DNA of 43,444 bases from Nitrospirota bacterium (GTDB lineage Bacteria > Nitrospirota > Thermodesulfovibrionia > Thermodesulfovibrionales > Dissulfurispiraceae): contig JBFMCP010000027.1 in the NCBI GenBank assembly GCA_040754455.1, forward strand, positions 1 to 43,444, in the 5' to 3' direction. Positions 17,183-43,322 of this stretch are shown here, piece after piece; the first letter of the stretch is position 1; every line of letters begins with the position of its first letter. Below the pieces are notes generated by a model. The model had not been told where the DNA came from. It saw nothing but the letters and a program-made list of their open reading frames with translations, and searched no databases. The translations under genes were made by a program, and so were the position numbers.

Positions 17183-17193
17183 GGAGGGAGATC

Positions 17194-17637: not shown

Positions 17638-17729
17638 CATCTGACCGAAGAACAATGGATGAGGAGAGCCGCAAATAGGTACAATAGTCGTGCGGCATAT
17701 ATATTCCAGGAAAACGGAGGCTTTTTTCT

Positions 17730-18944: not shown

Positions 18945-18966
18945 CCAATATTCCAAGGAGGACGGT

Positions 18967-23624: not shown

Positions 23625-25019
23625 TTAAACTAACTTTATAAAAGGAATCACCGAGGGCACAATGCCTATCACGAACACCATCGCCACCGAAATCGCAAGC
23701 GCAAGGCTGAGGGTCGGCGTCGGGTTGATGGCTGCCTCTGCCGTCATTTCCTTCATGTACATGTTTCTCACGACTCTCAGGTAGTAGTAGGCGGAGATGG
23801 CGCTGAAGATGACCGCCACAATCGCCAGCCAAACATAGCCCGCCCTGATGAGCGCCATGAAGATATTGAACTTTCCAATGAACCCTGCCGTGGGCGGAAT
23901 GCCGGTGAGCGAGAACATGAAGACCAGCATCAGCGCCGCTACCAGCGGGCGGCTCTTCGAGAGGCCTTCGTAGTCGCTGATCTCCTCTCCCTTGTCGAGG
24001 AGGATGACGATGGCGAAGGCGCCCATGTTCATGAAGGCGTAGATCATCATATAGGTCATCATCGCCTGCCGGCCCTCCTCGGTCCCCGCGATGATGCCGA
24101 GAAGCATATACCCTGCATGGGCGATCGAAGAGTAGGCGAGCATTCTCTTGATATTGGTCTGCGCTATGGCGAGGATGTTGCCGACCGCCATAGTAAGGAT
24201 GGCGATGCCGATGAGAACAGAGGTCCAGTCGGCCTGCATGTTCTGGAAGGCGGAGAAGAAGACCCTGCCGATCACGGCGAAGCCTGCTGCCTTCGGCCCG
24301 ACTGACATGAATGCGGTCACCGAGGTCGGCGCACCTTCATACACATCCGGCGCCCACATATGGAAGGGGACCGCTGCGATCTTGAAGGAGAAGGCCACGG
24401 CAATGAGGATCATCGCAAGCGTCAGGAGCGGCGTCGATCCTGTCTGCTGCAGCTGTGCAGCGATCTTCGTAAAGTCGGTGGTAGTGGTAGCGCCGTAGAG
24501 AAGCGAGATGCCGTAGAGGAGTAGTGCAGACGAAAATGCACCCAGCAGAAAGTACTTTATGGCCGCTTCATTCGATTTGATGTCGTGCCGTTTGATGCCG
24601 GCGAGCACATAGGTGCTCAGCGCCATCAGCTCGAGCCCAAGATAGAGGATAATGAAATCCCGTGCCGATGCCATGAGCATCATGCCGACGGTCGAAAAGA
24701 GCATAAGACTGTAGTACTCGCCGTAGTCCGCCTGCTGCCGCTTTATGTACTTCAGCGAGATGAGCACGGTCAGGATGATATTGATAAGGAAGATCAGCTT
24801 GAAATAGGTGCTGTAGGTATCGCTGATGAACATTCCGCCGAAGGTCTCGCCAGCACTCATCGGGAGGGTATAGAGTGTGACTGCTGCGACGCTGATGGTC
24901 AGGAAGGCCAGAACGCCTTTTTCCTTGAAGAGGAGGTCCAGAATGAGCAGCACCGTTGCTGCGATCGTCATTATGATCTCAGGGGTTGCAGGAGTTAAAT
25001 CCGGAAAAGGAATGTTCAT
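23625..25019 (-). CDS. nuoN: NADH-quinone oxidoreductase subunit N
   Basis: EAAIKYF, FKIAAVPFHMWAPDVYEGAPT and KRMLAYSSIAHAGY. Confidence 0.97.
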   Translation of the reverse strand: MNIPFPDLTPATPEIIMTIAATVLLILDLLFKEKGVLAFLTISVAAVTLYTLPMSAGETFGGMFISDTYSTYFKLIFLINIILTVLISLKYIKRQQADYGEYYSLMLFSTVGMMLMASARDFIILYLGLELMALSTYVLAGIKRHDIKSNEAAIKYFLLGAFSSALLLYGISLLYGATTTTDFTKIAAQLQQTGSTPLLTLAMILIAVAFSFKIAAVPFHMWAPDVYEGAPTSVTAFMSVGPKAAGFAVIGRVFFSAFQNMQADWTSVLIGIAILTMAVGNILAIAQTNIKRMLAYSSIAHAGYMLLGIIAGTEEGRQAMMTYMMIYAFMNMGAFAIVILLDKGEEISDYEGLSKSRPLVAALMLVFMFSLTGIPPTAGFIGKFNIFMALIRAGYVWLAIVAVIFSAISAYYYLRVVRNMYMKEMTAEAAINPTPTLSLALAISVAMVFVIGIVPSVIPFIKLV

Positions 25020-26530
25020 TTTATCACCTCAATGATCTGTTGTGCGACCTGTTGCGGCTGCCCTGCGGTACTGACCCGATTAATGAGGTTCTGCACCGAG
25101 GCATCCATGAAGCTGAGCAGGGTGTTGGGGTAGAAGCCGACATAGAGCACCAGAAGCACCAGTGGTACAACGGTCAGTATCTCCCTGAAATTGACATCAG
25201 GGTGTCCCTGCACTTTTGGGTTCACTTCCATAAAGAAAACCCTTTGGTAGAGCCAGAGCATGTATGCGGCACCGATGATGATCCCTGTTGAGGCGAGGAC
25301 GCCCATCGGTTTGGATGCGGTAAAGCCGCCCAGGAGGATGAGGAACTCGCCGATGAAGCCGTTCGTTCCGGGGAGCCCTATCGATGCCAGGGTGAAAACC
25401 ATGAAGAGCGCTGCATAAATCGGGAGCACCGTAGCAGTACCGCCGTAATCGGCGATCTTTCGTGTATGGGTGCGGTCATAAATGATACCGACGCAGAGGA
25501 AGAGCCCGCCGGTAACAATGCCGTGGTTGATCATCTGCAGGATGCCGCCCTGGATGCCCTGCGTATTCAACGCAAAGATACCGAGCGTTACGAATCCCAT
25601 ATGGCTCACCGAGCTGTAGGCGATCAGCCGCTTGAGGTCGGTCTGGCCGAGACAGATCACCGCGCCGTAGATGATAGCGATGACCGAGAGGATCATCATC
25701 ACCGGCGACATTGCCCTGGTCGCTTCGGGCAGTATGGGCATGCTGAAGCGCAGGAAGCCGTAGGCACCCATCTTGATGAGAATGCCGGCCAGGATCACAC
25801 TGCCTGCAGTCGGCGCCTCGGTATGGGCGTCAGGCAACCATGTATGTACCGGAAACATGGGGACCTTGACAGCAAAGGCTGCAAAGAACGCCCAGAAGAG
25901 AATCAGCTGCAGATTAAATGGATACGTGGTATTCATCATCTGCAGGATATCGAACGATCTCCCGGTATTCAGATAGAGCACGATGATGCCGACCAGCATC
26001 AGCACGCTGCCGACCAGAGTAAAGAGGAAGAACTTGATGGCGGCGTAGACCCTGTTCGGGCCTCCCCATACGCCGATCAGGAGGAACATCGGAATGAGCA
26101 TCGCCTCCCAGAAGATATAGAAAAGAAAGAGGTCGAGGCTGCAGAAGACGCCGATCATCGCGCCTTCGGTCAGGAGCAATGCGGCATAAAATTCCTTTGT
26201 CCTGTCTTTTATGCTGTTCCACGAGACGGTCACGCAGAGGATGGTCAGGAGTGTCGAGAGCAGCACAAAGAGAACGCTGATGCCGTCCACGCCGAGAGCG
26301 TACTTTATGCCCCAGGAAGGTATCCATTGGTAGCTCTCGGTAAACTGCATGTTCGCCGTCGTCTTGTCGAAGTCGAGGAAGAGTGGAACGCTCAGAAAGA
26401 AGGTGAGCACGCTTAACAGCAGGGCGGTCCACTTGATAAGGGCCTCATTGCTCCTGCTCATAAGAAATATAAGCAATGCCCCTACGATGGGTAGGAATAT
26501 TACGGTACTCAGTATCGGGTAGCTCATCAA
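25016..26530 (-). CDS. nuoM: NADH-quinone oxidoreductase subunit M
   Basis: FWEAMLIP, KVPMFPVHTWLPDAHTEAPTAGS and AYSSVSHMG. Confidence 0.97.
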   Translation of the reverse strand: MMSYPILSTVIFLPIVGALLIFLMSRSNEALIKWTALLLSVLTFFLSVPLFLDFDKTTANMQFTESYQWIPSWGIKYALGVDGISVLFVLLSTLLTILCVTVSWNSIKDRTKEFYAALLLTEGAMIGVFCSLDLFLFYIFWEAMLIPMFLLIGVWGGPNRVYAAIKFFLFTLVGSVLMLVGIIVLYLNTGRSFDILQMMNTTYPFNLQLILFWAFFAAFAVKVPMFPVHTWLPDAHTEAPTAGSVILAGILIKMGAYGFLRFSMPILPEATRAMSPVMMILSVIAIIYGAVICLGQTDLKRLIAYSSVSHMGFVTLGIFALNTQGIQGGILQMINHGIVTGGLFLCVGIIYDRTHTRKIADYGGTATVLPIYAALFMVFTLASIGLPGTNGFIGEFLILLGGFTASKPMGVLASTGIIIGAAYMLWLYQRVFFMEVNPKVQGHPDVNFREILTVVPLVLLVLYVGFYPNTLLSFMDASVQNLINRVSTAGQPQQVAQQIIEVIK

Positions 26531-26538
26531 TCCTCCTC

Positions 26539-28479
26539 TTACTTTCCTGCCGACGCTATCAATACAAGGGTCATTATTACAAAGAGACCGATCGCCATAC
26601 TCACGGCGTAGTGCTGCAGATGGCCTGACTGCAGCTTTCTCAGTCGCTCTCCGAAATTGCCTATGGCCTTAGGCACACCGTTAACGATTCCTTCGATAAT
26701 GCCGCCGTCGGTCACTGCCATCAGCACATTGGTGGCAGCCCACTTCGTCGGCCTGACGATGATGAAGTCATACAGCTCATCGATATAGTATTTGTTCCAC
26801 AGCGTGGTGTAAATACCCTTGAAGGTTGCGGCGAGTGTCCTCGGTATCTCGGGCTTCAGCGCATAGAAGACCCAGGCGAAGAAGATGCCACCGAAGGCAG
26901 CGGCGATCGATATGCCGATGACCATCCACTCTTCCTCATGCGTTCCATGCACTTCGGGATGTCCGAGTACCGGCTCGAAGAAGTGGGCGACCCAGTTCCC
27001 GACGCCGATGTTCGAGCCGAGCAGCTCGGGGATGCCGACCCAGCCCGCGGCAATCGCGCCGATGGCGAGGATCATCAACGGAATCGTCATGGACTTCGGC
27101 GATTCGTGGAGATGGTGCTCCTGCTCGTGGGTGCCCCTGAACTTTCCATGGAAGGCGAGGAAAATGATTCTGAAGCTGTAGAAGGCGGTCAGTGCCGCAA
27201 CGACCGTACCCATTGCCCAGACGATCCTGCCAACGGTGCCGCCGTTGTAGGCCATCCAGAGGATCTCGTCCTTGCTGAAGAAGCCCGCCAGTCCCGGCAC
27301 GCCGGCGATACTTAATGAAGCGATGAGGAAGGTCCAGTAGGTGACGGGCATGTATTTTTTGAGGCCGCCCATCTTCTGGATATCCAGCTCACCTGCCATA
27401 GCATGCATGACGCTGCCAGCGCCGAGGAAGAGGAGGGCTTTGAAGTACGCGTGCGTATATAAATGGAACACGCCTGCTCCGTAAGCACCGACGCCGCAGG
27501 CCAGGAACATGTAGCCGAGCTGGCTTACGGTGGAGTAGGCGACAATTCTTTTTATATCATTCTGAACGAGAGCAATGGTCGCTGCAAAGAGGCTGGTGAC
27601 CGCACCGGTAATGGCGACGACATTCATCGCTATTGGAGAGAGGCTGAACAGCGGATTGAACCGTGCGACCATGAAGACACCGGCAGTGACCATGGTGGCA
27701 GCGTGGATCAAGGCGCTGACCGGCGTGGGGCCTTCCATTGCATCGGGCAGCCACACATGGAGCGGAATCTGCGCCGATTTACCGACGGCGCCGCAGAACA
27801 GGAGCAGCGCGATCAGGGTGATGAGATCGACGTTATAGCCGAACATCTGAATGGTCTGGCCCTGCAGGGTACCCACTGTTCCGAAAATGTCGGCATAGTG
27901 GACGCTGCCGAGGAAGAGAAAGATCATCATGACGCCGATGCCGAAGCCGAAGTCACCGAAACGGTTGACGATGAAGGCCTTCTTTCCGGCATCCGAGGCG
28001 CTCTTCTTTTCATACCAGAAGCCGATGAGGAAGTAGGAGCAGAGGCCCACCGCCTCCCAGCCGAAGTAGAGCTGCAGCAGGTTGTTGCCCATGACGAGCA
28101 TGAGCATCGAGAAAGTAAAGAGGCTGAGATACGAGAAGAACCGGTAGTAGCCGGGGTCGCCGTGCATATAGCCGACGGAGTAAATATGGACGAGAAGGCT
28201 GACGCTCGTCACCACGATGAGCATGATGGCCGTCAGCTGGTCGATCAGAAAGCCGATCGTCACCTTGAAATTTCCCGAGACGATCCAGCTGTAGACATCC
28301 TGGTTCACGGTCTTTCCCTGCGCGACCTCTCCGAAGGTCATCACGGCAATGATGAAAGAGCCCAACACGGCGGAGATCGCGATCCAGTGCGCCCTGTCCT
28401 TGATGAGGAACCTGCCGAAGAGGATATTGATGCAGAATGCTGCGAGCGGAAGAAGCGGTATTAACGTATATTTATCCAT
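26539..28479 (-). CDS. nuoL: NADH-quinone oxidoreductase subunit L
   Basis: GKSAQIPLHVWLPDAMEGPTPVSALIHAATMV. Confidence 0.97.
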   Translation of the reverse strand: MDKYTLIPLLPLAAFCINILFGRFLIKDRAHWIAISAVLGSFIIAVMTFGEVAQGKTVNQDVYSWIVSGNFKVTIGFLIDQLTAIMLIVVTSVSLLVHIYSVGYMHGDPGYYRFFSYLSLFTFSMLMLVMGNNLLQLYFGWEAVGLCSYFLIGFWYEKKSASDAGKKAFIVNRFGDFGFGIGVMMIFLFLGSVHYADIFGTVGTLQGQTIQMFGYNVDLITLIALLLFCGAVGKSAQIPLHVWLPDAMEGPTPVSALIHAATMVTAGVFMVARFNPLFSLSPIAMNVVAITGAVTSLFAATIALVQNDIKRIVAYSTVSQLGYMFLACGVGAYGAGVFHLYTHAYFKALLFLGAGSVMHAMAGELDIQKMGGLKKYMPVTYWTFLIASLSIAGVPGLAGFFSKDEILWMAYNGGTVGRIVWAMGTVVAALTAFYSFRIIFLAFHGKFRGTHEQEHHLHESPKSMTIPLMILAIGAIAAGWVGIPELLGSNIGVGNWVAHFFEPVLGHPEVHGTHEEEWMVIGISIAAAFGGIFFAWVFYALKPEIPRTLAATFKGIYTTLWNKYYIDELYDFIIVRPTKWAATNVLMAVTDGGIIEGIVNGVPKAIGNFGERLRKLQSGHLQHYAVSMAIGLFVIMTLVLIASAGK

Positions 28480-28481
28480 AG

Positions 28482-28784
28482 TTACCCTTTCATCTCCGTT
28501 ATTTCATCGGTATGTATTGCTGCCTTATTTCTGAACAAGGCCACCAGTATCGCCAAGCCTATGGCCGCCTCCGCCGCTGCCACCGTAATAATGAAGAAGA
28601 CCAGCACCTGCCCCCTCAGGTCCTGCAGATAATGGCTGAAGGCGACGAGGCTGATATTCACCGAATTGAGCATCAATTCAATGGACATGAGCATAATGAT
28701 GATGTTCCTTCTGATCAGAAATCCGACGACACCGATGATGAATATGACGGCGCTCAGCGCGATATACCATTCCAACGGTACCAT
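28482..28784 (-). CDS. nuoK: NADH-quinone oxidoreductase subunit K, 100 aa
   Basis: [26 protein letters not shown]. Start reassigned to ATG 28784. Confidence 0.95.
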
Positions 28785-28789
28785 GTTGT

Positions 28790-29296
28790 CTATACCCTCC
28801 TCTTTGCTAGTACGATAGCACCCACAATGGCGATCAACAGTACCAGCGAAGCGACTTCGAAGGGGAAGAGGTACTCGGTGTAGAGTAATGTGCCGATTGC
28901 CTTTGCGTGGGTCATTGATGTGATGTACTCGATCGTATGCTGTCCGGCGGGCCCCTGGGTAAGGCTGCCCATCACGAAGAGGATGAGCACCAGCAGGGAG
29001 AGCCCCAGCGCGACCCCGATGGGCCATTCCCCGGCAAAGCGGTCACCCTCCAGCTCTTCTTTGAGGTTGAGCATCATAACGACGAAGAGGAACAGGACCA
29101 AGATCGCTCCTGCGTACAGGATAAGCTGCACTGCGGCAAGGAACTCGGCGTTCAGGAAGAGATACACGGCGGCGATGTGAAAGAACATCGCCAGCATCCA
29201 GAGCACGCTGTGGACCGGATTCCGCCTGGTGATGATCAGCACCGATAGGACGGTCATTGCAACGGCAAAATATCCGAAGAAAATTTTAGGCAGCAT
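28790..29296 (-). CDS. nuoJ: NADH-quinone oxidoreductase subunit J
   Basis: [21 protein letters not shown] and PFEVAS. Confidence 0.96.
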
Positions 29297-29903
29297 TGCT
29301 CAGTTCCCCCTGGGCTTTTTCAGTATTCGTCTCTTTCTTCTGCACCGCTTCGGGAGCAGCGCTCTTTTTTCCCCTTAACACCGGCTGATCGTCATGGGCC
29401 ATGAAATCCTCGCTCATCGGCCTCCAGAAACGTTTGAAGTATACTTCGCCCTCCTTGCCCGCCATGTACTTGTCCCAGTTGGCAAGGAGCTTCGCTTTAT
29501 CCATATAGAGTGCCTCACGGGAGTAATCCGAATATTCGTAGTGGCGGGTGAGCGCCACGGCGCCGAAGGGACATGCCTCGACGCAGAACCCGCAGTAGAC
29601 GCAGCGGAGCAGCTCGATCTCGTACCGGTCCACGATCTTGGTGTGGTCCGGGCCCTCGCTGGTATAAACATAAATGCACCGGGACGGACAGACCGCCGCA
29701 CAGAGGCCACATCCTACGCACTTTGCATCGCCGTTTTCCTTCCGCACCAGGGCATGCAAGCCCCTGAATCCCGGGAACGCCTCGCGTTTCTCTTTAGGGT
29801 ATTGCCGTGTCACGGCAGGCGTGAGCATCATCCTGAAGGTCAGTGCCATGCCCTTCAGGATCTCAAGCATGAAGATTTTTTTTGCAATGTTCTTTAAGGT
29901 CAT
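29286..29903 (-). CDS. nuoI: NADH-quinone oxidoreductase subunit I
   Basis: FRGLH, CVGCGLCAAVCP and CVYCGFCVEACP. Confidence 0.96.
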   Translation of the reverse strand: MTLKNIAKKIFMLEILKGMALTFRMMLTPAVTRQYPKEKREAFPGFRGLHALVRKENGDAKCVGCGLCAAVCPSRCIYVYTSEGPDHTKIVDRYEIELLRCVYCGFCVEACPFGAVALTRHYEYSDYSREALYMDKAKLLANWDKYMAGKEGEVYFKRFWRPMSEDFMAHDDQPVLRGKKSAAPEAVQKKETNTEKAQGELSNAA

Positions 29904-29968
29904 AACCGTTCTCCCTCTCTATATACGCACCTTGGGTTTATTACTTGTTATCGTCCCTCTGATTTTTC

Positions 29969-31006
29969 CTATACGAAGTAGGCGACCAGCGACGTGACGA
30001 CGATGTTCGCCAACGCGAGCGGGATCAATACCTTCCACCCCAGCGACATCAGCTGGTCGTAGCGGTACCTCGGTACCGTCGCCCTTACCCAGTAGAAGAG
30101 GAAGATGTGGAAGTAGACCTTGAGCACAAACCAAACAATACCGGGCACTGCCAACAGCGCAGGAACCGCATTGGTGATCACCGGCGGAAGCGTCCAGCCG
30201 CCCCAGAAGCAGATGACGGCAATACTCGACATGACGATCATGCCGATATATTCCGCAGCGTAATAGAGGGCGAACCTCATGCCGCTGTATTCGGTAAAGT
30301 ACCCAGCCACCAGCTCGCTCTCCGCTTCGGGAAGGTCAAAAGGTGTTCTGTTCGTCTCAGCGAACATGGCGACAAGGAAGATGAAATATCCCACAATCTG
30401 CGGGAAAAGGAACATGCCGTACCAGCGCTGCTGCTGTGCATGAACGATTTCGGTAAGATTCAGTGACCCCGACAGAAGCATAACGCCGACAAGGCTCAGG
30501 CCCATGGCGACTTCATAGCTGATGACCTGCGCCGAAGACCTCAATCCGCCCAGGAAAGGGTATTTCGAATTCGATGCCCATCCTGCCATAACGACGCCAT
30601 ACGCTGCCATTGAAGACATGGCGAAGATATAGAGGAGTCCTACATTGATATCGGCAATGACGAATCCTTCAAAAAAGGGCACAACAGCCGCAGAGCTCAA
30701 CGATGCAAAGAGAATGATGATGGGCGCGATCTTGAAGACCGTCTTATCAGCATTCGCAGGGATGATATCCTCTTTGAAAAAGAGCTTGACACTGTCGGCA
30801 ATCGGCTGCAGGATACCGTGGGGGCCTACCCTCATGGGACCAAGCCGTATCTGCATATGTCCTATCACCTTCCGCTCAAAGTAGGTGGCATAGGCCACAT
30901 GGAACATCACCGCTCCCACAACCACGGCGATCTTGATAAGGATCACGACGACGTTCAAAAGGAAATTGTCACTTCCTGCCGACAGAAACGCTTCGATCAT
31001 ATTCAC
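29969..31006 (-). CDS. nuoH: NADH-quinone oxidoreductase subunit H
   Basis: ERKVIG..RLGP, AETNRTPFDLPEAESELV and PRYRYDQLM. Confidence 0.97.
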   Translation of the reverse strand: MNMIEAFLSAGSDNFLLNVVVILIKIAVVVGAVMFHVAYATYFERKVIGHMQIRLGPMRVGPHGILQPIADSVKLFFKEDIIPANADKTVFKIAPIIILFASLSSAAVVPFFEGFVIADINVGLLYIFAMSSMAAYGVVMAGWASNSKYPFLGGLRSSAQVISYEVAMGLSLVGVMLLSGSLNLTEIVHAQQQRWYGMFLFPQIVGYFIFLVAMFAETNRTPFDLPEAESELVAGYFTEYSGMRFALYYAAEYIGMIVMSSIAVICFWGGWTLPPVITNAVPALLAVPGIVWFVLKVYFHIFLFYWVRATVPRYRYDQLMSLGWKVLIPLALANIVVTSLVAYFV

Positions 31007-33624
31007 GCAGCCACCTCCGCAGTCATTCGCTCGCTCTTCGTTACCGTGACCTCAATGCCGTCCAATGCCGGTATTTTCATGACCGCATTCAGCTTCCACG
31101 GCAGAAGCTTGAATGCCCCCCGCTCTTCAACATTATTCGGTACCAGAACCAGCCCCTCGGGCATATCGGCAAACACCAGTGCCGGCAGCTCGAGCGTATC
31201 CGTTTCGGTCGAGAGGCTGACATAGTCGCCGTCGGCGACCTCCAGTCGTTTCGCGATGCTGCTGCCGATCTTTACATACGGCTTCGACGAGATACTGTTC
31301 AACGCCGCCGAATGCCTGCTCTGGCTCGCCGAATGGAAGAGCGGTTTATCGATACCTATGTAGAGTTTGCTCTTGTCGCTCTTCTTCAGCAGCGATTTCA
31401 TGTCAGGCATGCTGAGCCCCTCGATGCCGGCATCGTGCCGTAAGGGCTCGCCTTTGTACGGCCACATACATTCCCCGCCGTCCATATCCTCATAGCTGAT
31501 TCCCTTGTGAAGCGGGGAGACCTTAGCGATCTCGGCCAAAACATCCTGTGCATCCCTGTACTGCATGGCAACGCCCAGCCTCGTGCTGATCTCGGCAAGG
31601 ATCTTCCAGTCCTCGATTCCCTGTCCCCCGATGGCCTTCCGCAGGTGCTGCATTCTGCCTTCGAGGTTGGTATACGAGCCCTCTTTCTCCGACCAGGAGA
31701 GTGAAGGCAGTACCACATGGGCACGCTGTGCCGTCTCATTGAGGAAGATGTCCTGGACAATGAGGAAGTCGAGGGTGGACAATACCTCTTTTACGAATTT
31801 CTGTCCCGGCACATTGAATGCCACATTCTCGCCCATCACGTAGAGGGCCTTTATACGTTTCGCTTTGATGCCTTCTATGATCTCCATCAGGCCCAGCCCG
31901 GGGGCAGAAGGTATCTCGCCTTTTACAAACTCTTCATAGCGCTTTCTGAAGCTTTCGACCGCAACCGGCCGTGCACCGGGGAGCATGTCGGGCAGGCACC
32001 CCATATCGACCAGGCCCTGCTCATTGGGGAGCTCGGAAGAGAGATAAATACGGCCGTTCAGAATATGGACCAGCGCGGCGAGGAGCAGGATCGTGGTATG
32101 CCCGTCGGTCCTCTGGATAATATCCCTGCCGATGATCACCGACGGATTCGTGACACCGGAGAGATTTTCGACACAGGCCTCAAGCTCCTTCACCGGAATA
32201 CCGCATACCTCGGATGCTTCGGCAAGCGAGATGGACTGGAGTTTTCCGATGATCTCTCCGAACGCGCTCTTCTCACCCGAAAGCGGCTTTTTCTTGAGCA
32301 GTTCGGAAACCAGTGCTGCCAGAAGCGTCGTCTCGGTGAAGGGAGCCGGGAGCAGCCGGTTCGTGCTGAACCTCCTCAATCCCGCTGCATAGCCGACCGT
32401 AACGACGGGAACCCCCTGCTGAGCGACTGCCCTGATCTGCAGTCCCAGCACCGGATTCACTGACGTAGGGTCGCCGCCGATGGTAAAGACGCCGTCTGAT
32501 TTTGCGATACCGCTGATCGGATTTGCGGTCACTCCCTGTCCGAAGATCTTCCCGAAGAGACGCTGTGCAGGGGCAAAGGCAAAGCCTGCGACGGAATCGA
32601 TATTGTTGCTGCCCAAGGCGACCCTCATGAATTTCTGGAAGACATAGTTGTCTTCGTTCGTACAGCGTGCCGAGGCCACCCCCGCAATGGCGTTTCCGCC
32701 GTGCTGTTCCTTGATGGTCTTCAGCTGCTGTGCGATATAGGCGAAGGCTTCACTCCAGGTCGTCTCCTGGAGCACGCCGTCTTTTCGTATCATTGGTGAT
32801 TTCAATCTCTTGGGGCTGTTGACGTAATCGTAGCCGAACCTTCCCCTGTTGCAGAGGAGGCCGTTATTGACGCCTTTTCCGGCCTCGGGCACGACCCTTA
32901 TGATCGCGTCGCCTCTCGACTGGACCGTGAAGGTGCATCCCACGCCGCAGAAGGAGCAGATCGTATCCACATTCTTCTCGATGAACCATGGCCGATAGGT
33001 ATGCTTATGAAGTCTCGATATGATGGCACCCACCGGGCAGACGGTCAGACAGTTGCCGCAGTATTCGCAATTATACCGACCGCCGGAAAAGGGCTCGACA
33101 TAGGTCTTGCTCGTCCTGTTGACCATGGAGATGGCCGATGCGCCCTGCACCTGGTTGCACATCCGGACGCACCGCGTACAGGAAATGCAGCGCTCCATGT
33201 TGCGCACGATGATCGGATCGTCATAGCTTTCCGGATGTTTCCGTTTGCCCTCGGCAAAGCGCCCTGTCGTGGGGCCGTACTTTACCACGAGGTCCTGAAG
33301 GTCGCACTCGCCGGCTTTGTCGCAGTAGGGGCAATCGAGGGCGTGGTTGATGAGGAGAAATTCGAGCATCGCCTTCCTCGCATCGATGACCCGCTCGGTC
33401 TCGGTCCTGACGACCATGCCGTCAGTGACGCTCAGGGTGCATGCGGTCTGGAGCCTCGGAAGCTTCTCCACCTCCACAAGACAGAGCCTGCAGCCGCCGA
33501 ACGGCTTGAGCATTTCATGGTGGCAAAGCGTCGGGATCTTGATTCCCGCCACCTTGGCTGCCTCAAGAATGGTAACCGGCTTTTCAAGTTTGATCTGTTT
33601 TTCGTTGATGGTTACTGTTATCAT
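31003..33624 (-). CDS. nuoG: NADH-quinone oxidoreductase subunit G (long, FdhF-like), 873 aa
   Basis: N1b C..GGCRLC..C, N5 HALDCPYCDKAGEC, CISCTRCVRMC, CEYCGNCLTVCP and N7 CSFCGVGC..C. It lies between nuoF and nuoH. Confidence 0.9.
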   Translation of the reverse strand: MITVTINEKQIKLEKPVTILEAAKVAGIKIPTLCHHEMLKPFGGCRLCLVEVEKLPRLQTACTLSVTDGMVVRTETERVIDARKAMLEFLLINHALDCPYCDKAGECDLQDLVVKYGPTTGRFAEGKRKHPESYDDPIIVRNMERCISCTRCVRMCNQVQGASAISMVNRTSKTYVEPFSGGRYNCEYCGNCLTVCPVGAIISRLHKHTYRPWFIEKNVDTICSFCGVGCTFTVQSRGDAIIRVVPEAGKGVNNGLLCNRGRFGYDYVNSPKRLKSPMIRKDGVLQETTWSEAFAYIAQQLKTIKEQHGGNAIAGVASARCTNEDNYVFQKFMRVALGSNNIDSVAGFAFAPAQRLFGKIFGQGVTANPISGIAKSDGVFTIGGDPTSVNPVLGLQIRAVAQQGVPVVTVGYAAGLRRFSTNRLLPAPFTETTLLAALVSELLKKKPLSGEKSAFGEIIGKLQSISLAEASEVCGIPVKELEACVENLSGVTNPSVIIGRDIIQRTDGHTTILLLAALVHILNGRIYLSSELPNEQGLVDMGCLPDMLPGARPVAVESFRKRYEEFVKGEIPSAPGLGLMEIIEGIKAKRIKALYVMGENVAFNVPGQKFVKEVLSTLDFLIVQDIFLNETAQRAHVVLPSLSWSEKEGSYTNLEGRMQHLRKAIGGQGIEDWKILAEISTRLGVAMQYRDAQDVLAEIAKVSPLHKGISYEDMDGGECMWPYKGEPLRHDAGIEGLSMPDMKSLLKKSDKSKLYIGIDKPLFHSASQSRHSAALNSISSKPYVKIGSSIAKRLEVADGDYVSLSTETDTLELPALVFADMPEGLVLVPNNVEERGAFKLLPWKLNAVMKIPALDGIEVTVTKSERMTAEVAA

Positions 33625-33626
33625 GG

Positions 33627-34880
33627 CTACACACTCACCGCTTCTTTTATTTTGTTTTCAAACTCATTTCTAAAGTGCTTGATGAAGCTCTGCACGACCG
33701 TTGCAGCACCGTCGCCAAGAGGGCAGAAGGTCTTGCCCAGGATGTTTTTGGAGACTTCCATGAGGAGGTCGATATCGCCCTCTCTCCCCTGTCCCGAATT
33801 TATTCTGACCAGGATGCTCCGCAGCCAGCCCACGCCCTCCCTGCAGGGAGTGCACTTTCCGCATGATTCGTGTTCAAAAAACTTGATGGCTCTGAGGCAG
33901 ACCTTCACCAGGTCGACCGACTCGTCAAAGACCATTACTGCTCCGGAACCGAGCATGCTACCGTGTTTGGGCATGCTCGGGAAGTCCATAGGGCAGTTGA
34001 GCTTGTCTCCCGGAAGGACCGGCGTCGAAATACCGCCGGGGATGACCGCCTTGATCTTCTTGTCGCCGAGGATGCCGCCGCAATGGTCATAAATGATATC
34101 TTTCAGCGTCGTCCCCATCGGAAGCTCATAGACACCGGGCTTTTTGACATGGCCGCTCACAGAGTAAAGTTTAGGTCCAGGGCAATCGGCGCTGCCGATC
34201 TTTGAATAGGCCTCAGCGCCGATAGTTATTATATAAGGGATGTTGGAAAGGGTCTCGACATTATTGACGACAGTCGGCTTTGCCAGGAATCCTTCGTTGA
34301 CCGGGAACGGAGGCCTCGTTCTCGGCTGTCCTCTCTTGCCCTCAAGGGATTCAATCAAGGCAGTCTCCTCGCCGCAGATATAGGCGCCTGCGCCTTGATG
34401 GACATAAAGGTGAAAGCGTATGCCTTTTCCGAGGATGTTATCGCCAAGGTAACCTTTTTCGTAGGCCTGTGCAATGGCGCCTTCGAGGATATCCTTTGCC
34501 TTCGGGTATTCACCCCTGAGGTAAATATAGCCGTATTCCGCCTGGAGCGCATGGCCGGAAATGGCCATCCCTTCAATCAGGAGATGCGGATTCTTTTCGA
34601 GGATGGGACGGTCTTTGAATGTTCCGGGCTCGCCTTCATCAGCGTTGCAGACGAGATACTTCGGCTTCTTCGGATCGGCTGCGGCAAACGACCACTTCAT
34701 GCCGGTCGGAAAGCCTGCGCCGCCCCTTCCCCTCAGTCCGGATTTTTTTACTTCATCAATGATATCGGAGGGCTTCATGTCGATCGCCTTGGCAAGCGCC
34801 GCATAGCCTCCGGTTTTGACGTATTCGCTGAGGTCTGCTGAGTTCGGGTTGCTGATATTTTTTAACAGAAATGGTTCCAT
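33627..34880 (-). CDS. nuoF: NADH-quinone oxidoreductase subunit F
   Basis: GLRGRGGAGFPTGMKW, NADEGEPGTFKDR, GAGAYICGEETAL and ESCGKCTPCREG. Confidence 0.97.
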   Translation of the reverse strand: MEPFLLKNISNPNSADLSEYVKTGGYAALAKAIDMKPSDIIDEVKKSGLRGRGGAGFPTGMKWSFAAADPKKPKYLVCNADEGEPGTFKDRPILEKNPHLLIEGMAISGHALQAEYGYIYLRGEYPKAKDILEGAIAQAYEKGYLGDNILGKGIRFHLYVHQGAGAYICGEETALIESLEGKRGQPRTRPPFPVNEGFLAKPTVVNNVETLSNIPYIITIGAEAYSKIGSADCPGPKLYSVSGHVKKPGVYELPMGTTLKDIIYDHCGGILGDKKIKAVIPGGISTPVLPGDKLNCPMDFPSMPKHGSMLGSGAVMVFDESVDLVKVCLRAIKFFEHESCGKCTPCREGVGWLRSILVRINSGQGREGDIDLLMEVSKNILGKTFCPLGDGAATVVQSFIKHFRNEFENKIKEAVSV

Positions 34881-34889
34881 AGCTCGTCC

Positions 34890-35354
34890 CTACTTATAAC
34901 TTTCCAGAATTTTAAAGATATTCTCTTCAGTCAGATTGTCATGGAAATCCGTGTTCACGAGCATCGCCGGTGCCGTACCGCAGGCGCCGATGCACTCCAT
35001 GATGACCAAAGAAAACCTGCCGTCGGCAGTCGTCCCGTTCGGCTCAAGGCCGTATTTCTGCTTGAGCAGATCGACGAGCCGCTCCGCCCCCATAATCATG
35101 CAGGCCACGTTGGTGCAGAGCTGGATCACGTGCCTGCCCACCGGCTTGTGTCTGAACATGGAATAAAAGGTCGCGACGCCTTTTACCGTCGCTTTCGGGA
35201 TATTCAACAAATCTCCCACTTCGGCCATTGCCTCGGGGGCGATCCAGCCGTTCTCCCGCTGCACCACATAGAGGCTGGGCAGCAGCGTTGACCGTGGCTC
35301 CTGGTACTTGCTTTTGATTCTGTTAATTTCCGTTATAACTTTTTCGCTCAGCAT
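34890..35354 (-). CDS. nuoE: NADH-quinone oxidoreductase subunit E
   Basis: VATFYSMF, CTNVAC and ECIGACGTAP. Confidence 0.96.
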   Translation of the reverse strand: MLSEKVITEINRIKSKYQEPRSTLLPSLYVVQRENGWIAPEAMAEVGDLLNIPKATVKGVATFYSMFRHKPVGRHVIQLCTNVACMIMGAERLVDLLKQKYGLEPNGTTADGRFSLVIMECIGACGTAPAMLVNTDFHDNLTEENIFKILESYK

Positions 35355-35362: not shown

Positions 35363-36568
35363 TTACCGATCGACCTCTCCAAGGACGATATCAATTGTAC
35401 CTATGTTTGCGATAACATCAGCTACAAGAGCGCCTTCACAAAGCTTCGGCAACACCGATACATGGACGAATGAGGGTGACCTCAATCTCATCCGGTACGG
35501 CCTCCCTGTGCCGTCGCTCACAATGTAGAATCCCAATTCCCCTTTGGGCACTTCAGTGGCAGCATAGATTTCGCCTTCCGGCGCAGCAATCGGGCCTTTG
35601 GTAATCAGGACAAAGTGGTGAATGAGCGACTCCATATCACTCAAGACCCTGTCCTTCGGCGGAAGGGTGAACTTCGGGGCATCAGGAGCTATGATCGGTC
35701 CCTTCGGCATCTGCTCAAGGCACTGTTTGATGATGCGGTTGGACTGCTTGAGCTCTTCCATCCTGCAGAGATAGCGGTCATAGACATCGCCGTTCTTCCC
35801 TACGGGAACATCGAACTCCACCTTGTCGTAGGCATCGTAGGGTGCGACCTTCCTTATATCATAGGGCACACCCGATCCTCTCAACGTGGGACCGGTCAGC
35901 CCCCAGTTGATCGCATCCTCAGCGCTGATGACGCCGATTCCTTTTGTCCTTTGCAGCCAGATTCTATTTTCGTTAAGTAAGGTTTCGTATTGCTCTTCGA
36001 TGATCTTGGGATATTTTTCGGTAAAGTCGTAGAGCTTATCGATGAACTCCTGACTCACATCGTTCCGCACGCCGCCGATCCTCGGGTAGCTTACGGTGAG
36101 CCGGGCGCCGCAGGTCATCTCGAACAGATCGAGGAGCTGCTCTCTGTCCCTGAAGGAATAGAGAAAGAGGGTCATGGCGCCGATATCGAGGGCATGCGTT
36201 GCAATGCCAATGATATGGCTGCTGATCCTCGTCATCTCACACATAATCGTTCTGATGTATTTGGCTCTTTCGGGTACCTCGATACCGAAGAGCTTCTCGA
36301 CAGCAACACAATAGCCGACATTGTTCGACATGCTCGAGATGTAATCCAGACGGTCGGTCAGCGGCAGTGCCGAGGCATACGTTCTGTCTTCAGCCAGTTT
36401 CTCAACTCCCCTATGCAGGTATCCCACATAAGGCGTGCACTTTTTGATGGTCTCTCCCTCGAGATCGAGCACGAGCCGGAGCACGCCGTGCGTTGCCGGG
36501 TGCTGCGGCCCCATGCTGACGGTCATTTCTCTTGATTTCAGTCCGTTTCCGTTGGTCGCCTCTGCCAT
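35363..36568 (-). CDS. nuoD: NADH-quinone oxidoreductase subunit D
   Basis: [28 protein letters not shown] and GEVDR. No hydrogenase CxxC motifs. Confidence 0.97.
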
Positions 36569-37105
36569 TTACCTAACCTCGTATCCTTTATTCTTTTCAG
36601 CTATTGCGATGACGTCCTTGAACCCTTTCCATTCCATCTCTCCGAGATCGCTCTTGAGCGGGTAGTCCTTGCGCAGGGGATGCCCTTCCCAATCCTCGGG
36701 CAGCAGGATCCTCCTCGGATCAGGATGACCATTGAAGACCACGCCGAGCAGGTCATAGCACTCTCTCTCGTGCCAGTTTGCCCCTGCCCATATATCGACG
36801 ACGCTGTCGATCGTGCAGTCATCCTCAGGGACCTCTGCCTTGATCCTTATCATATGCCCATGTCGCATTGAATAAAGGTGATACACCACTTCAAACCTCG
36901 GCTCTTTCTTGCCGAGGTAGTCGACACCGCCGAGGTCTTCCAGGAAGTTGAAGTACAGTTCGGGCGTCTCGTAGAGAAACCGCATCATCTCTTTGATTCT
37001 ATCCTTCTTGACCGTTACCGATACCTGACCGCGGAATTCTCTTATCTCTTTTACCTCCGTCGGGTACCTGTCCTTTATCTTCTCTGCAATCTCTTTTGGA
37101 TCCAT
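36569..37105 (-). CDS. nuoC: NADH-quinone oxidoreductase subunit C
   Basis: RFEVVYHL, ANWHERECYDLLG and GHPLRKDYP. Confidence 0.97.
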   Translation of the reverse strand: MDPKEIAEKIKDRYPTEVKEIREFRGQVSVTVKKDRIKEMMRFLYETPELYFNFLEDLGGVDYLGKKEPRFEVVYHLYSMRHGHMIRIKAEVPEDDCTIDSVVDIWAGANWHERECYDLLGVVFNGHPDPRRILLPEDWEGHPLRKDYPLKSDLGEMEWKGFKDVIAIAEKNKGYEVR

Positions 37106-37146: not shown

Positions 37147-37686
37147 TTAGCGCCATCTGCTCCACTTAAAGTGCTCTTTCTTTATCTTCTCCTGCAGCTT
37201 GATGATACCTTCCAGGAGCGCTTCAGGCCTCGGCGGACATCCGGGGACATATACGTCCACCGGCAGGAACGTATCCACGCCCTGAACAGTGCTGTAGGAG
37301 TTGAATATGCCTCCGCTGTTAGCGCAGCTGCCCATAGAGATAACATAGCGCGGCTCGGGCATCTGGTCATACACCCTTCGTACGATAGGCGCCATCTTCT
37401 TGGTTACCGTGCCGGCGATGATCACGAAGTCAGCCTGTCGCGGCGAGCCTCTGAAGATAATGCCCAATCTATCCAAATCATAGTGTGACGATCCCGTCGT
37501 CATCATTTCAATGGCGCATCAGGCCAGGCCGAAGGTCATCGGCCACAATGACGACATTCTGCCCCAGTTGACCAGCTTATCGAAGCTCGCGATAAGCGTG
37601 TTGGCGCCGGGGATAACCCTCAGTCCCTTCTCTATCTCAACAACTTCCGAGTCAGTGTGGGGAGTGGTTATGATATCGGTTGTCAT
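37147..37686 (-). CDS. nuoB: NADH-quinone oxidoreductase subunit B with an in-frame UGA at codon 56 (putative Sec), 179 aa
   Basis: RBS AAGGAGGT and ATG 37686. Reads ..[14 protein letters not shown](37521-37519)-[31 protein letters not shown]. Confidence 0.92.
37486..37502 (-). promoter_or_regulatory. Putative SECIS in nuoB
   Basis: mRNA sense TGACGA-CGGGA-TCGTCA. The loop starts 22 nt after the UGA. Confidence 0.65.
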
Positions 37687-37792
37687 AGACTGTTCACCTC
37701 CTTATTTTTGCGTTATTGCGTTTATTGCGTTGTGAGTTATCGCGAAAAAAGGAAAGTCGCTACAACGCTCAACGCTATAACTCTAAAACGCT

Positions 37793-38176
37793 TTAGTCCC
37801 ATTTAAATGCTTCTTTTCTCCATGCATAGAGATAGCCCACCACAAGCATGGCGATAAAGAGCATCATTTCGACCAGGGCGTACAGGCCGATCTTGTTATA
37901 TACCAGCGCCCAGGGATACAGGAACACGGCTTCCACATCGAAGATGACGAAGAGCATGGCGATGATGTAGAACTTGACGCTGAACCTGATCCGCGGTTCT
38001 CCTACCGGAGGGTTTCCTGATTCATAGGGCATGAGCTTTTCGTCGTACGGCCTCCTGATCCTGAAGAGTCCGCCGATGAGAAGGGCGCCTGCACCGAAGG
38101 CTGCTGCGATTACCATGAAAATCAGAATGGGAAGGTATTCGGTAGGAACGTAACTGCCAGGGGTCATCGGGTTCAT
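37793..38176 (-). CDS. nuoA: NADH-quinone oxidoreductase subunit A
   Basis: PYESG and FYIIAMLFVIFDVEAVFLYPWA. Confidence 0.96.
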   Translation of the reverse strand: MNPMTPGSYVPTEYLPILIFMVIAAAFGAGALLIGGLFRIRRPYDEKLMPYESGNPPVGEPRIRFSVKFYIIAMLFVIFDVEAVFLYPWALVYNKIGLYALVEMMLFIAMLVVGYLYAWRKEAFKWD

Positions 38177-39382: not shown

Positions 39383-42300
39383 TTATATTTTTACCAGCTT
39401 CACCTTCGTATCATAGAACGAGACGCTGCCGCCGACAGGGTCGAGCATGCAGGTATTCTTCAGGTGAGGATCGACCCACATAGCGGCATTTGCGTGAATT
39501 CCGGTAGCCCTCCTCGGGTCTCCTTTTATGACCCTGCCGTCTATCATAAAATCCGAGGCGCCTGTTGCCCACAGGCCATGCCCGAGGGTAAAGGTGATGA
39601 CGCCGGGCATAATCGTCTCCGTAACCATCACCTTGCCGACCATGGGCTTCTTGTTGCCGCCCTTGAGGTCATATATCCCCTCCGGATTGGTGGACGAGAC
39701 CACCTTCACCCTGTCGCCGTCCTTAAGCCCCATCTTTTTAGCATCGGCCGAGTTTATGATCACCTCGTTCTCAGGTCGGATGGCAAGAAGCCAATAATCG
39801 ACTATGGTACGGGATTTGGTCATAGTGACATCCCGCTGGGTCAGGAGGTGCAGAGGATAGCCGTCCTCCAGCCCGCTCTCTTTCGGAGATTTGCCCAGAG
39901 CGCTTGTTATGGGCAGATATGTGGCGTATCCGGGGTTCGATTTTCCGGTAAAGGCGTTCTTCGTGCCTGCCGTCTTCTCCTGGTAAATGTTGATAGCGAT
40001 CTTGTACTGGTTTGCCACGAGGTCGCCCTTATAGATGTCCGCATATTCCTGGAACCGGCCGCCGCGGTTCAGCACATAGACCACCTTGCGCCAGTTCGGG
40101 CCCGCTATCTTCTCCCATCTTGCGGAGTCGAAGACGGTCTTCGGCAGATGCTTTCTCGAATCGAGGAAGAGCTGAAGCTCCCTGTCATCCGCATCCGGCA
40201 CCGGCGTTCCCTCTGTGGCACAGTTGGCGACCATTCTTATATAAAAATCGTCCGGCTTCGTGAAATCCTGCCCCGGGCCGAAGCCGTCCTTACCATAGCC
40301 CTTCATCCCGAGCTTCTCGGCAAGGGCCAATATCAGGGCCTCGTAAGAGCACGGCATCTCTTCTCCGAAGACGGTTACCGTTTCCGTTATAGGTGCGATG
40401 ACCGGCTGTCTTATCGGCTGGACTTTTGCCGGCATGTTCGGGTGCGAGCCCTGCATCTCCCAGCGCTCCAGATACGAGAGGTCGGGGAAGATGTAATCCG
40501 CGTACAGGGAGGTAGTGCCTATCAGGATGTCGGACGCGAAATAGAGAGGTATCTTGTTCACATCTGCAAGGATCTCGATATTGGTGTGGCCGGCCGGAAG
40601 CGCGTAAGTGGGCGCGCCCATGTAGCTGAAGACCGCCTTGATGGGATACGGATAAGCATCTCCCGTCGAGGGAATTATCTCCTCGTAGATGTCGCTTGCC
40701 AGCGGCCACCAATTCCTCTTGGCAGGGTATCCTTCAAAGAGAGTGGAATCCTCGTACTTTATATCGTGCCTAATGATACTTATCCCGAACTTCGTGGTTT
40801 TGCCGGGCTTCAACTTGCCCAGATTAAAAGGCTGGCCCTCCTTGTCACCCATTACGTTATATGCAGAGGCAGAAATCATCCCCCCCTTCCAGTCGAAATT
40901 GCCAAGGAGCAGGTTCAAGGTCATCGCGCCCGTCACGTTGTAGAAGCCGTTCGTGTGCTGGGCTATGCCCCTGTGCACATCGACGACCGCCTGCTTGCCG
41001 TAGCTCGTAAGTTCCTTGGCCGTAAGCTCGATATCCGGGACACTTATGCCGCATATCTTCGACCATTCGGCCATGCTCTTTGAGTTTGCCGAATCGGCCA
41101 GCACTTGAAGGCCGCTCTTTACCTTTATGCCGTTTATCTCGGTATCCACGAGGAGGTCGCCTGTCACAGGATTCTTCTCGTCATTCGGATCGACCGCAAC
41201 GGGCTTGCCGTCCTTCATGCAGACGAGGTACTCGAAATCGTGCTCTTTGCCCTCCTTGTCCTTCCGCTTTTCGGGCCGGGCAAGGCCGATCTCCTGCGCC
41301 CTCAGGAACTTGCCCGGCTTGCCTTTGTCGTCCAGCTTCACCAGGAGTACGGCATTCGTCCATGTGGGCTCGCCGGCCGCTTTTGCAGCTGACTTATTGG
41401 CATTGGCCAGGTATTTGGCATCATACTTTTTGTTCTTGATTATCCATTGGATAAGTCCCATAAAAAAAGCGCCGTCTGTGCCGGGGATAATGGGCATGTA
41501 CCTGTGCGCCTTTGAAGCCGCCTTGTTGAAACGAGGATCTACAACGACAAGCTTTGTCTTCCCCTGGAATATGTTCGGCACGATCCTGGCATTTCTGTTC
41601 GGCGGCCCGTAATTGGCATCGAAGAGATTTGAGCCCACCGAGAGGACGTACTTGGAGTTCTCGAAGTCTCCCTGCCAGTAGAACTTCTTGCCTCCGCCGA
41701 ACTTGTTGAACTCGTACTGCTCGCTCATTGCCTTGCAGGTAAAATAGAGCGAGCCTTGACAGACGGTGGTGTGCCCGTGGGTATTGGTCGTGCCGAAATA
41801 GTCGTTGAAGAATCTGAGAGAGAAATCGCTCCGTCCGGCCTTCTTCCTGCCCCAGAAATAAAGCAGCTGATTGTTTTTGGGGCCGAGGTCGGGGTGATCG
41901 GGGTCTATCAGGTAATGCAGGTTCGCTGCGTGCTTCGTCTTGAATTCTTCGACCGCCTTTTTCTTGTCCTTCGCTTTTGCCAGCGCCTTTACGTCATCAG
42001 CCATCGCTTTGGCAATCGCCGGATCTCTCAGCGCATAGATATCTTTGAGACCGGGTACCACTCTGTTTTCCTCTCCGGGCACGTGAGCGAAGAGTGTTCC
42101 GCCGTTCACGATCTCATCGATTGCCTTGCCGAAAGGTATGGTTGTCCATTTGTTCTCGCCCCTCTTGCCGGCCCTCTTCAGCACCTTCGTAATCCTGTAA
42201 GGGTCGTACGCCGTCTGTATGCCCGCCTGGCCTTTGGGACAGATAGCCATGTCAATTGTGTTTACATCAAACGGTGAGGTCTTATAAGAAAGGGAGGGCA

Positions 42301-42601
42301 CCGAAACGAACGGGTTATAGGGATTGCCGTCTATCTTCAGGGCCACGGCATCTCCGTTCTTGCGGAAAAACTTCACCTTTATACCGCATCCGGTATTGCA
42401 CTGCAGGCAGGCGGTGTACAATGTGTTTTCCGCCTTGATGAGCTCGTACTCCTCCTCGGGCGTAAGCATGCCCGCCTCGGCCCTGCGCAGGAGGTCACCA
42501 GCCCATCCCTGTGAGGCAAGGATCCCGCCGCCCACGATGGCCGAGCATTTCATGAAATCCCTTCGAGTCATTCCATTCTTTTTATCTTTATGTTCCTTCA
42601 T
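39383..42601 (-). CDS. ttrA: Tat-exported Mo/W-bisPGD oxidoreductase, TtrA-like, 1072 aa
   Basis: Twin-Arg TRRDFMK, Fe-S motif CLQCNTGC..CPKGQ, putative Mo ligand HTTVCQGS, YADYIFPD..LERW and the C-terminal DPVGGSVSFYDTKV. Substrate not provable from sequence. Confidence 0.8.
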   Translation of the reverse strand: MKEHKDKKNGMTRRDFMKCSAIVGGGILASQGWAGDLLRRAEAGMLTPEEEYELIKAENTLYTACLQCNTGCGIKVKFFRKNGDAVALKIDGNPYNPFVSVPSLSYKTSPFDVNTIDMAICPKGQAGIQTAYDPYRITKVLKRAGKRGENKWTTIPFGKAIDEIVNGGTLFAHVPGEENRVVPGLKDIYALRDPAIAKAMADDVKALAKAKDKKKAVEEFKTKHAANLHYLIDPDHPDLGPKNNQLLYFWGRKKAGRSDFSLRFFNDYFGTTNTHGHTTVCQGSLYFTCKAMSEQYEFNKFGGGKKFYWQGDFENSKYVLSVGSNLFDANYGPPNRNARIVPNIFQGKTKLVVVDPRFNKAASKAHRYMPIIPGTDGAFFMGLIQWIIKNKKYDAKYLANANKSAAKAAGEPTWTNAVLLVKLDDKGKPGKFLRAQEIGLARPEKRKDKEGKEHDFEYLVCMKDGKPVAVDPNDEKNPVTGDLLVDTEINGIKVKSGLQVLADSANSKSMAEWSKICGISVPDIELTAKELTSYGKQAVVDVHRGIAQHTNGFYNVTGAMTLNLLLGNFDWKGGMISASAYNVMGDKEGQPFNLGKLKPGKTTKFGISIIRHDIKYEDSTLFEGYPAKRNWWPLASDIYEEIIPSTGDAYPYPIKAVFSYMGAPTYALPAGHTNIEILADVNKIPLYFASDILIGTTSLYADYIFPDLSYLERWEMQGSHPNMPAKVQPIRQPVIAPITETVTVFGEEMPCSYEALILALAEKLGMKGYGKDGFGPGQDFTKPDDFYIRMVANCATEGTPVPDADDRELQLFLDSRKHLPKTVFDSARWEKIAGPNWRKVVYVLNRGGRFQEYADIYKGDLVANQYKIAINIYQEKTAGTKNAFTGKSNPGYATYLPITSALGKSPKESGLEDGYPLHLLTQRDVTMTKSRTIVDYWLLAIRPENEVIINSADAKKMGLKDGDRVKVVSSTNPEGIYDLKGGNKKPMVGKVMVTETIMPGVITFTLGHGLWATGASDFMIDGRVIKGDPRRATGIHANAAMWVDPHLKNTCMLDPVGGSVSFYDTKVKLVKI

Positions 42602-42614
42602 GTATCGATCCCCC

Positions 42615-43322
42615 TTATGGCAGTATGTAAAATACCCGGGGCCTGGTGGCTGCGGACTCTGCAAAGACCGGGGCCTTGCCGGGGTAGTTTATCTTTTCCG
42701 CAATCTCCATCGGTTTCATCCCTGCGAACATGCCGGTGGCCACTTTGGTGTCGTGCCTGGGCAAGGTCTCCTTGAGGACCATCACCTTGTTCTCTTTCAT
42801 CATCTTGTAGATGAGGCTTTCCTTGTCCTGCGGATCTCCGAAAAAGTTCGCCCTGCAGGGGCAGGTGCTTACGCAGGCGGGAACCATCCCTTTTCTCAGT
42901 CTGTGAAGACAGAAATGGCACTTCCTGACAACGCCCATCGGAAGCTCGGGCCTTTTCCTGGGCCATTTGCGGCTGTATTCCCATGTAGGAGAGGTATCGT
43001 AGTGCTGCATCCGCGGAGTGCCTTCGGTATAGAACCTGCCGGCATCGAGGGTGCGGGCCTTGTAGGGGCATCCGGCCACGCACCGGCCGCACCCGATGCA
43101 CTGCTCGTAATTGATCATCACTATGCCCGCGCTGTCTCCTTTCGTGCTCTTCCATGTGGCCTTGCCCTCTCCCTTATTGGGGCAGGCCTCCACGCATGGA
43201 GGGTTGTCGCACTGATTGCACAGCCTTGGGGTAAAACGCCTCTTGACCTTCGGGAACGTCCCCATCTCCTCTTCGTAAACCGGCCTGTACATCACACCCG
43301 GGGGGCTCTTCTGCTCGGCTAT
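42615..43322 (-). pseudogene. ttrB: TtrB/NrfC-type 4Fe-4S subunit, 3' part; 5' part cut off by an IS
   Basis: CNQCDNPPC..CP, CIGCGRC..CPY and KCHFC..PACVSTCP are present. The first CxxCxxCxxxC, expected just before IAEQKSPPGV, is replaced by IS sequence. Confidence 0.8.

Follow-up and report, generated by a model that had tools for sequence, protein, structure and literature searches.

A complex I NuoB with a putative selenocysteine ligand at the terminal [4Fe-4S] cluster N2

In the DNA analysed here (a stretch of 43,444 nucleotides, hereafter the window), the nuoB gene contains an apparent stop codon that is very probably read as selenocysteine (Sec). The gene lies at 37147..37686 on the minus strand and encodes 179 aa when the UGA is read through. 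Its in-frame TGA, at 37519..37521 (minus strand), is codon 56 and stands where the tandem Cys-Cys pair that ligates cluster N2 of complex I has its first Cys. TGA-nuoB is real and conserved, and its UGA is almost certainly recoded, which makes a familiar subunit a selenoprotein at a metal site that ranks among the best studied in bioenergetics. For the full reading, in which SelB/SECIS recoding leads to a Sec-ligated N2, we estimate a probability of about 0.88.

Few residues of complex I are as invariant as the N2 ligands. As described in the accessible part of PMC8042128, quinone receives its electrons directly from this cluster, which lies some 12 A above the quinone site and is bound by four cysteines that include the strained tandem pair.

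An in-frame TGA at the first N2 cysteine

The nuoB frame contains a single in-frame TGA, in the context TFGLA*CAIEMM (translation of 37147-37686, minus strand), and a Shine-Dalgarno-like site is found at 37696..37704 (minus strand). The read-through protein scores 246 bits with TIGR01957 (cut-off 142.7), 256 with NF005012 (cut-off 116) and 107 bits with PF01058 (cut-off 27). An earlier sequence-only reading had described the ribosome-binding site and the frame on either side of the UGA as intact, and the Shine-Dalgarno-like site, the 179-residue read-through and the family scores bear this out. Aligned with solved PSST subunits, NuoB shows no gap at the motif, and the TGA coincides with the first Cys of GLACCA(V/I)EMM, in agreement with the position claimed from the GLACCAIEM motif. 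The same alignment gives U56, C57, C121 and C150 as the predicted N2 ligands.

This layout corresponds to the four N2 positions with their adjacent pair, in place of which the small subunits of group 4 hydrogenases have CxxC. Family scores, ligand spacing and the nuoA-N operon are as in Cys-type NuoB/Nqo6/PSST (NDUFS7), whereas the solved chains read Cys-Cys and the first Cys is here a TGA with a conserved hairpin. Because three of the four N2 ligand codons encode Cys and codon 56 is TGA, nuoB represents a variant of the Cys-type family. The nearest named relatives belong to Nitrospirota: the protein is 88% identical to a Dissulfurispiraceae protein, 85% to that of 'Nitrospirae bacterium GWB2_47_37' and 79% to that of a Thermodesulfovibrio, which points to the class Thermodesulfovibrionia. 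At the tandem pair, 119 of 120 protein-database homologues read CC and one reads GC, with the reservation that U may be stored as C in such entries. A database NuoB from a Nitrospirae MAG (P0010) carries Gly at the first ligand position, a single case and possibly an error.

The genome, whose completeness is rated at 100%, holds no second close nuoB; the next-best match is a hydrogenase-type small subunit, 43% identical. The gene is the second of a complete nuoA-N operon of 14 genes, all on the minus strand: nuoA (37793..38176), nuoC (36569..37105), nuoD (35363..36568), which encodes the quinone-binding partner of N2, the intact NADH-input module nuoE, nuoF and nuoG (31003..35354), and nuoH, I, J, K, L, M and N, likewise intact (23625..31006). 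The remaining 13 genes (A, C-N) had been called intact from the sequence, and indeed all are open and all match their NCBIfam families.

A conserved SECIS-like hairpin in a genome that encodes selenocysteine machinery

A SECIS-like apical stem-loop follows the UGA at +17..+33 (37486..37502, minus strand), with a 6-bp stem (UGACGA/UCGUCA) and the loop CGGGA starting at +23; it is the 6-bp hairpin with a G-rich loop noticed at the outset. The second loop position is G, and a G at position 1-2 of the apical loop is a hallmark of bacterial SECIS elements in the accessible part of PMC13582414. The loop start at +23 lies within the range of +20..+24 seen for the FdhA, peroxiredoxin, DsbC-like, rhodanese and multiheme candidates of the same genome.

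Folding energy does not distinguish this hairpin: it was no better than chance against dinucleotide shuffles (z -0.09 to -1.26), gave p 0.23 against synonymous recoding, and reached p<=0.05 singly in only 4 of 104 TGA genes. We therefore dropped it as evidence, and the significance of the hairpin lies in its evolutionary conservation. Over codons +5..+11, pS amounts to 0.051 in 15 TGA genes as opposed to 0.762 in 15 Cys relatives, while everywhere else synonymous divergence is saturated (0.74-0.82 over both sets, 0.74-0.78 elsewhere in the TGA genes). Conservation of the hairpin in relatives, which the sequence-only reading had proposed to look for, thus takes the form of a synonymous constraint confined to TGA-bearing genes. 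The stem codons are the same in 41 of 41 TGA genes that encode the peptide MMTTGSSH, and the variation among these genes falls in the loop; 10 Cys genes with this peptide are mixed. In 148 distinct TGA stretches, nine peptide classes (at least 3 members each) have most stem codons frozen, their variation falling mostly at loop, wobble or unpaired positions; eight of the nine form a clear but different stem at the same place, and the ninth folds weakly in a short folding window. Selection acts on both the nuoB reading frame and the RNA hairpin.

Hairpins with at least 5 bp, a loop start at +19..+26 and a G at loop position 1 or 2 occur in 98 of 104 TGA genes, 2 of 21 close Cys genes and 23 of 70 distant Cys genes, a count over relatives that are not independent, after removal of seven loci as non-NuoB or truncated and merging of duplicates. 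Of the parameters of this rule, the G is published (PMC13582414) and the other thresholds were set after seeing the data. Phylogenetically independent pairs relating hairpin to codon number only 5 on well-supported branches, and the contrast is not significant (sign test, median p 0.375).

The genome encodes a tRNA-Sec with anticodon UCA and discriminator G73 (68 bits), selA, one selB over the cut-off and two selD genes, each with its own in-frame TGA and a weak hairpin (-2.5 and -7.4 kcal/mol); a search for selA, selB, selC and selD had been suggested, and all are present. Machinery, conserved TGA and hairpin constraint all favour the recoding of UGA to Sec that the sequence-only reading had put forward, and actual insertion of Sec at NuoB codon 56 appears highly probable on these grounds.

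That reading had also named a second Sec gene in the window. The gene is real: it encodes an AhpC/TSA peroxiredoxin, a predicted selenoprotein (16275-16910, plus strand; in-frame TGA at 16443, own SECIS-like hairpin), lies outside the nuo operon and points to Sec use in this genome. It belongs to an oxidative-stress cluster (~15743-19461) with a PerR-like regulator, a rubredoxin, a flavodiiron protein and a rubrerythrin-like protein. A de novo selenoprotein scan of the genome gave 864 candidates, mostly noise, from which only recognisable motifs were taken further. Additional in-frame TGA candidates are found at G000:C3:26466(-), C59:3267(+), C49:11887(-), C9:85167(+) and C42:5296(+). Judged by their motifs, these are probably, in this order, DsbC-like, rhodanese-like, multiheme-like, one without a label and with a poor hairpin, and FdhA.

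Distribution of TGA-nuoB

A pattern search for TGA at the first Cys matched 67 of the 301 genomes that represent the class, probably Thermodesulfovibrionia, and these are spread over 46 of 149 genera. The same pattern moved to the second Cys finds a TGA in 1 of the 301, an imbalance that argues against random nonsense mutation. A search of relatives for a conserved TGA had been recommended; it recovered the same codon in dozens of species. A nuoB-like gene is present in 287 of the 301 class genomes and 234 do not match the TGA pattern, and since most genomes with nuoB thus fall outside the pattern, selenium is not needed for N2 function. By hand count, 54 of the 67 TGA genomes have no other nuoB match at E<=1e-45; three further ones have two nuoB copies each, both with TGA. 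A second TGA match in genome G008 proved to be the gene's own stop and was discarded as a Sec candidate.

In a phylum-wide sample searched with a narrower pattern, TGA was found in 34 of the 135 genomes that belong to the class and in 0 of the other 266. A second phylum (centred on locus L063 and including a Thermodesulfobacterium genome) has it in 10 of 401 genomes, and among the matches listed for named genomes, mostly distant, TGA occurs in 4 of 80. At least 120 metagenome stretches carry the TGA pattern; in the first 80 of these matches, four are not intact nuoB and several are broken by contig ends. SelB exceeds the cut-off in all 61 TGA-nuoB entries tested (60 distinct genomes, one of them the second-Cys case). 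The presence of selA in 59 of 61 class relatives whatever the codon means that Sec machinery does not discriminate TGA from Cys genomes there. Some operons with TGA-nuoB lack nuoEFG and begin with genes for a molybdoenzyme and a ferredoxin (L063, L300, L301, L303, L304).

Two metagenome contigs, L239 and L255, have a TGA at the first-Cys position of PSST-like genes, without the bacterial hairpin. L239 has an N-terminal extension and no nuo neighbours and groups with a proteobacterial clade. Both are possibly eukaryotic; sequencing error or another code could also account for them.

Evolutionary history and the role of selenium at N2

On a 190-row tree the U/C label changes at least 17 times, with 5 changes forced by strong branches, and a careful 60-row tree has 11 changes, 6 of them forced. 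TGA and Cys genes are intermixed in the main clade. The hairpin is retained unchanged in L030 and L032, where the codon is TGC, and most of its sequence is retained in L058, likewise Cys-coded; all three are probable Sec-to-Cys reversions. Three TGA groups outside the main clade have strong support and hairpins of their own. Joining them with the main clade was not rejected (AU test, p-AU 0.24), so that independent origins are not demonstrated. In genome G470 (locus L305, G470:C85:49622-49647), the order is Cys-TGA, with TGA at the second Cys and the hairpin retained 3 nt closer.

In the partner subunit, Thr158 of NuoD takes the position of His226 in Yarrowia, a residue of the NuoD homologue that tunes the N2 potential (PMC8042128, accessible part), and the N2 of this complex I is probably of the low-potential type. 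Of the loci with a readable motif, all 85 with TGA and all 24 close ones with Cys have Thr at this position, whereas 32 of 40 distant Cys loci (duplicates not removed) have His. We considered the His-to-Thr change as a Sec-specific adaptation of the partner subunit and rejected it, as it is common to all close Cys loci and tracks lineage. The genome also encodes MqnC, which makes menaquinone the probable acceptor of complex I.

According to the mechanism that we propose, SelB with Sec-tRNA(UCA) would bind the hairpin at +17..+33, and Sec would be inserted at codon 56 in competition with RF2. Read-through would yield NuoB at full length, with the ligands Sec56-Cys57...Cys121...Cys150. Once this NuoB is assembled into the 14-subunit complex I, N2, the terminal [4Fe-4S] cluster, would have a selenolate in place of one of its thiolates, Se-Fe ligation being predicted by homology. 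Compared with a thiolate, a selenolate is softer, more acidic (lower pKa) and longer-bonding, and the oxidation of selenium is reversible. The selenium would occupy the strained tandem ligand adjoining the quinone-binding Tyr of NuoD. In the accessible part of PMC8042128, the first tandem Cys of a Yarrowia mutant structure is more mobile and near the quinone-binding Tyr144, and a partly disconnected N2 cluster was observed in the reduced Thermus enzyme. The selenolate may thus ease or stabilise a strained, mobile ligand, resist irreversible oxidation and fine-tune a low-potential N2 in anaerobes. That selenium relieves or stabilises the strained ligand is the benefit we prefer, and the most speculative part of our proposal, with odds a little short of even. 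The literature searched holds no report on how a Sec ligand affects the potential of a [4Fe-4S] cluster. Since Cys forms are scattered among the close relatives, any benefit is likely to be modest.

Almost as likely as such a ligand benefit is that Sec is inserted but near-neutral at N2, either as an ancestral Cys-to-Sec change that persists as long as selenium is in good supply and has frequently been undone, or as a link between complex I synthesis and selenium supply. This alternative concerns why Sec is there, and leaves the recoding as such untouched. The repeated label changes on the larger tree speak for it, as do L030 and L032, whose TGC with an identical hairpin is what a recent reversion would leave, the hairpin kept in G470 with its TGA at the second Cys, and the NuoD His-to-Thr change shared with all close Cys loci. 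It is harder to reconcile with the retention of TGA in 46 genera at saturated synonymous sites, although one base change restores Cys, and with the strong preference for one ligand position (67 versus 1 genomes). We retain the relief of a strained ligand as the preferred benefit, by a narrow preference.

A bolder reading, which we regard as doubtful, makes complex I a true selenoenzyme in several lineages of anaerobes. Selenium would on this view have been recruited repeatedly, and for different ligand positions (the first Cys, and the second in G470), as it would alter N2 redox behaviour or ligand release in quinone reduction; in some eukaryotes the substitution may even extend to PSST of the mitochondrial type (L239, L255).

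Other readings of the UGA codon

Insertion of Cys at the UGA, by a selC*-type tRNA-Cys or a Cys-loaded Sec pathway, would give an N2 with four ordinary Cys ligands. The genome does have a second tRNA-Sec-like tRNA (locus L002, G000:C21:54199-54289, minus strand, 58 bits), with U73, which agrees with the selC* tRNA-Cys type known from Nitrospirae. Roughly 5 kb away lies a selD cluster that also contains rhodaneses and a gene that is presumably YedF-like. The accessible part of PMC5389517 reports insertion of Cys at opal codons by selC* forms whose anticodon is UCA. The anticodon of the L002 tRNA is GCA, which does not match UGA, and the only UCA tRNA found has G73. A UGA-reading tRNA-Cys, which the sequence-only reading had named as a result that would count against Sec, was thus not found among the tRNAs detected in this genome. 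The one SelB over the cut-off also speaks against Cys, and a cell that placed Cys here would have no need to bear the cost of a conserved SECIS-type hairpin. We consider this reading improbable; some Cys might still be inserted when selenium is scarce.

Far less probable still is that nuoB is broken, by a nonsense mutation or a sequencing error, or that it makes only a fragment. Gene callers do yield only a 119-aa ORF (37147-37506), from an ATG downstream of the TGA, and four of the first 80 metagenome matches were not intact nuoB. The 119-aa ORF, however, begins past both tandem ligands, the gene is the only nuoB in an intact operon, and purifying selection acts on both sides of the TGA (pN/pS in 15 TGA genes 0.13 upstream and 0.09 downstream). 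The same codon is moreover shared by 67 genomes and by assembled contigs from three of four public runs (X3 record 2, X4 record 8, X5 record 19), which represent three studies, one of them including a possible source sample; in the fourth run, X8, no listed matching piece spans the codon. Confirmation of the TGA in reads had been called for, and these contigs, which are assemblies rather than raw reads, carry it without difference. We therefore rule out an assembly error as its source.

A variant code in which TGA means Trp or Gly, with nothing in its favour apart from the in-frame TGA itself, can be dismissed, since TGA terminates 626 of 1852 open stretches of at least 300 codons and an RF2 gene is present, so that the code is standard, while the single tRNA-Trp found has a CCA anticodon and the codon aligns with Cys in 119 of 120 database homologues.

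Relation to known selenoproteins

No complex I core subunit is listed in any of the selenoprotein catalogues searched. The families of Haft and Tolstoy (2025) reportedly appear in Table 1 of the 2026 selenoprotein review. NuoB, PF01058 and TIGR01957 are absent from the 119 prokaryotic selenoprotein families of that table (PMC13188914), consistent with the earlier statement that NuoB is not a classic selenoprotein family. Term searches of PMC1976440, PMC9312934, PMC5029168, PMC7539508, PMC13326102, PMC12013277, PMC13745706, PMC13582414 and one preprint did not find Sec-NuoB, and neither 'Nuo' nor 'complex I' occurs in the searched part of PMC13582414. The literature searched, with subscription journals outside its scope, thus contains no report of Sec-NuoB. 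Two catalogued entries might be mistaken for it by name or function: 'NADH:ubiquinone oxidoreductase subunit E' is PF02508/NqrE of Na+-NQR, and RnfC belongs to Rnf, a respiratory ion pump; neither is NuoB/PF01058.

The closest precedent is a 2026 report of Sec in the large subunits of group 4 hydrogenases (PMC13582414, accessible part). These [NiFeSe] enzymes are energy-converting complexes related to complex I, have Sec for a metal-binding Cys, were found by UGA read-through, are sporadic and have a G in the SECIS loop. Their Sec resides in the large subunit, the NuoD homologue, at the Ni site, whereas the Sec predicted here is in the small-subunit homologue, as a [4Fe-4S] ligand of a true complex I. 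MvhD/VhuD/FrhD, HdrA and 2Fe-2S binding proteins offer a precedent for Sec at predicted Fe-S binding cysteines (PMC13188914), but they have other folds and pathways and none is a complex I core subunit.

If our reading is right, a Se-ligated N2 brings a new selenoprotein family into the core of respiration and makes energy conservation in these bacteria potentially selenium-dependent; a selenium-dependent respiratory chain follows only if there is no back-up read-through with Cys. It would also provide a natural single-atom label on N2 for Se EXAFS, 77Se ENDOR and anomalous maps, on a strained ligand whose release upon reduction has been debated, with natural Sec/Cys near-twins, 85-90% identical, ready for comparison. 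For annotation, nuoB in dozens of Nitrospirota-type and Desulfobacterota-type genomes will be called truncated or missing, distorting metabolic reconstructions.

Neighbouring genes

Upstream of the nuo operon, beyond trpC, the window contains a tetrathionate-reductase-like molybdoenzyme with an Fe-S subunit (39383-43442, minus strand), both below family cut-offs. At 3282-9714 (plus strand), two large genes resemble a type III restriction-modification pair, with weak methyltransferase and HsdR matches.
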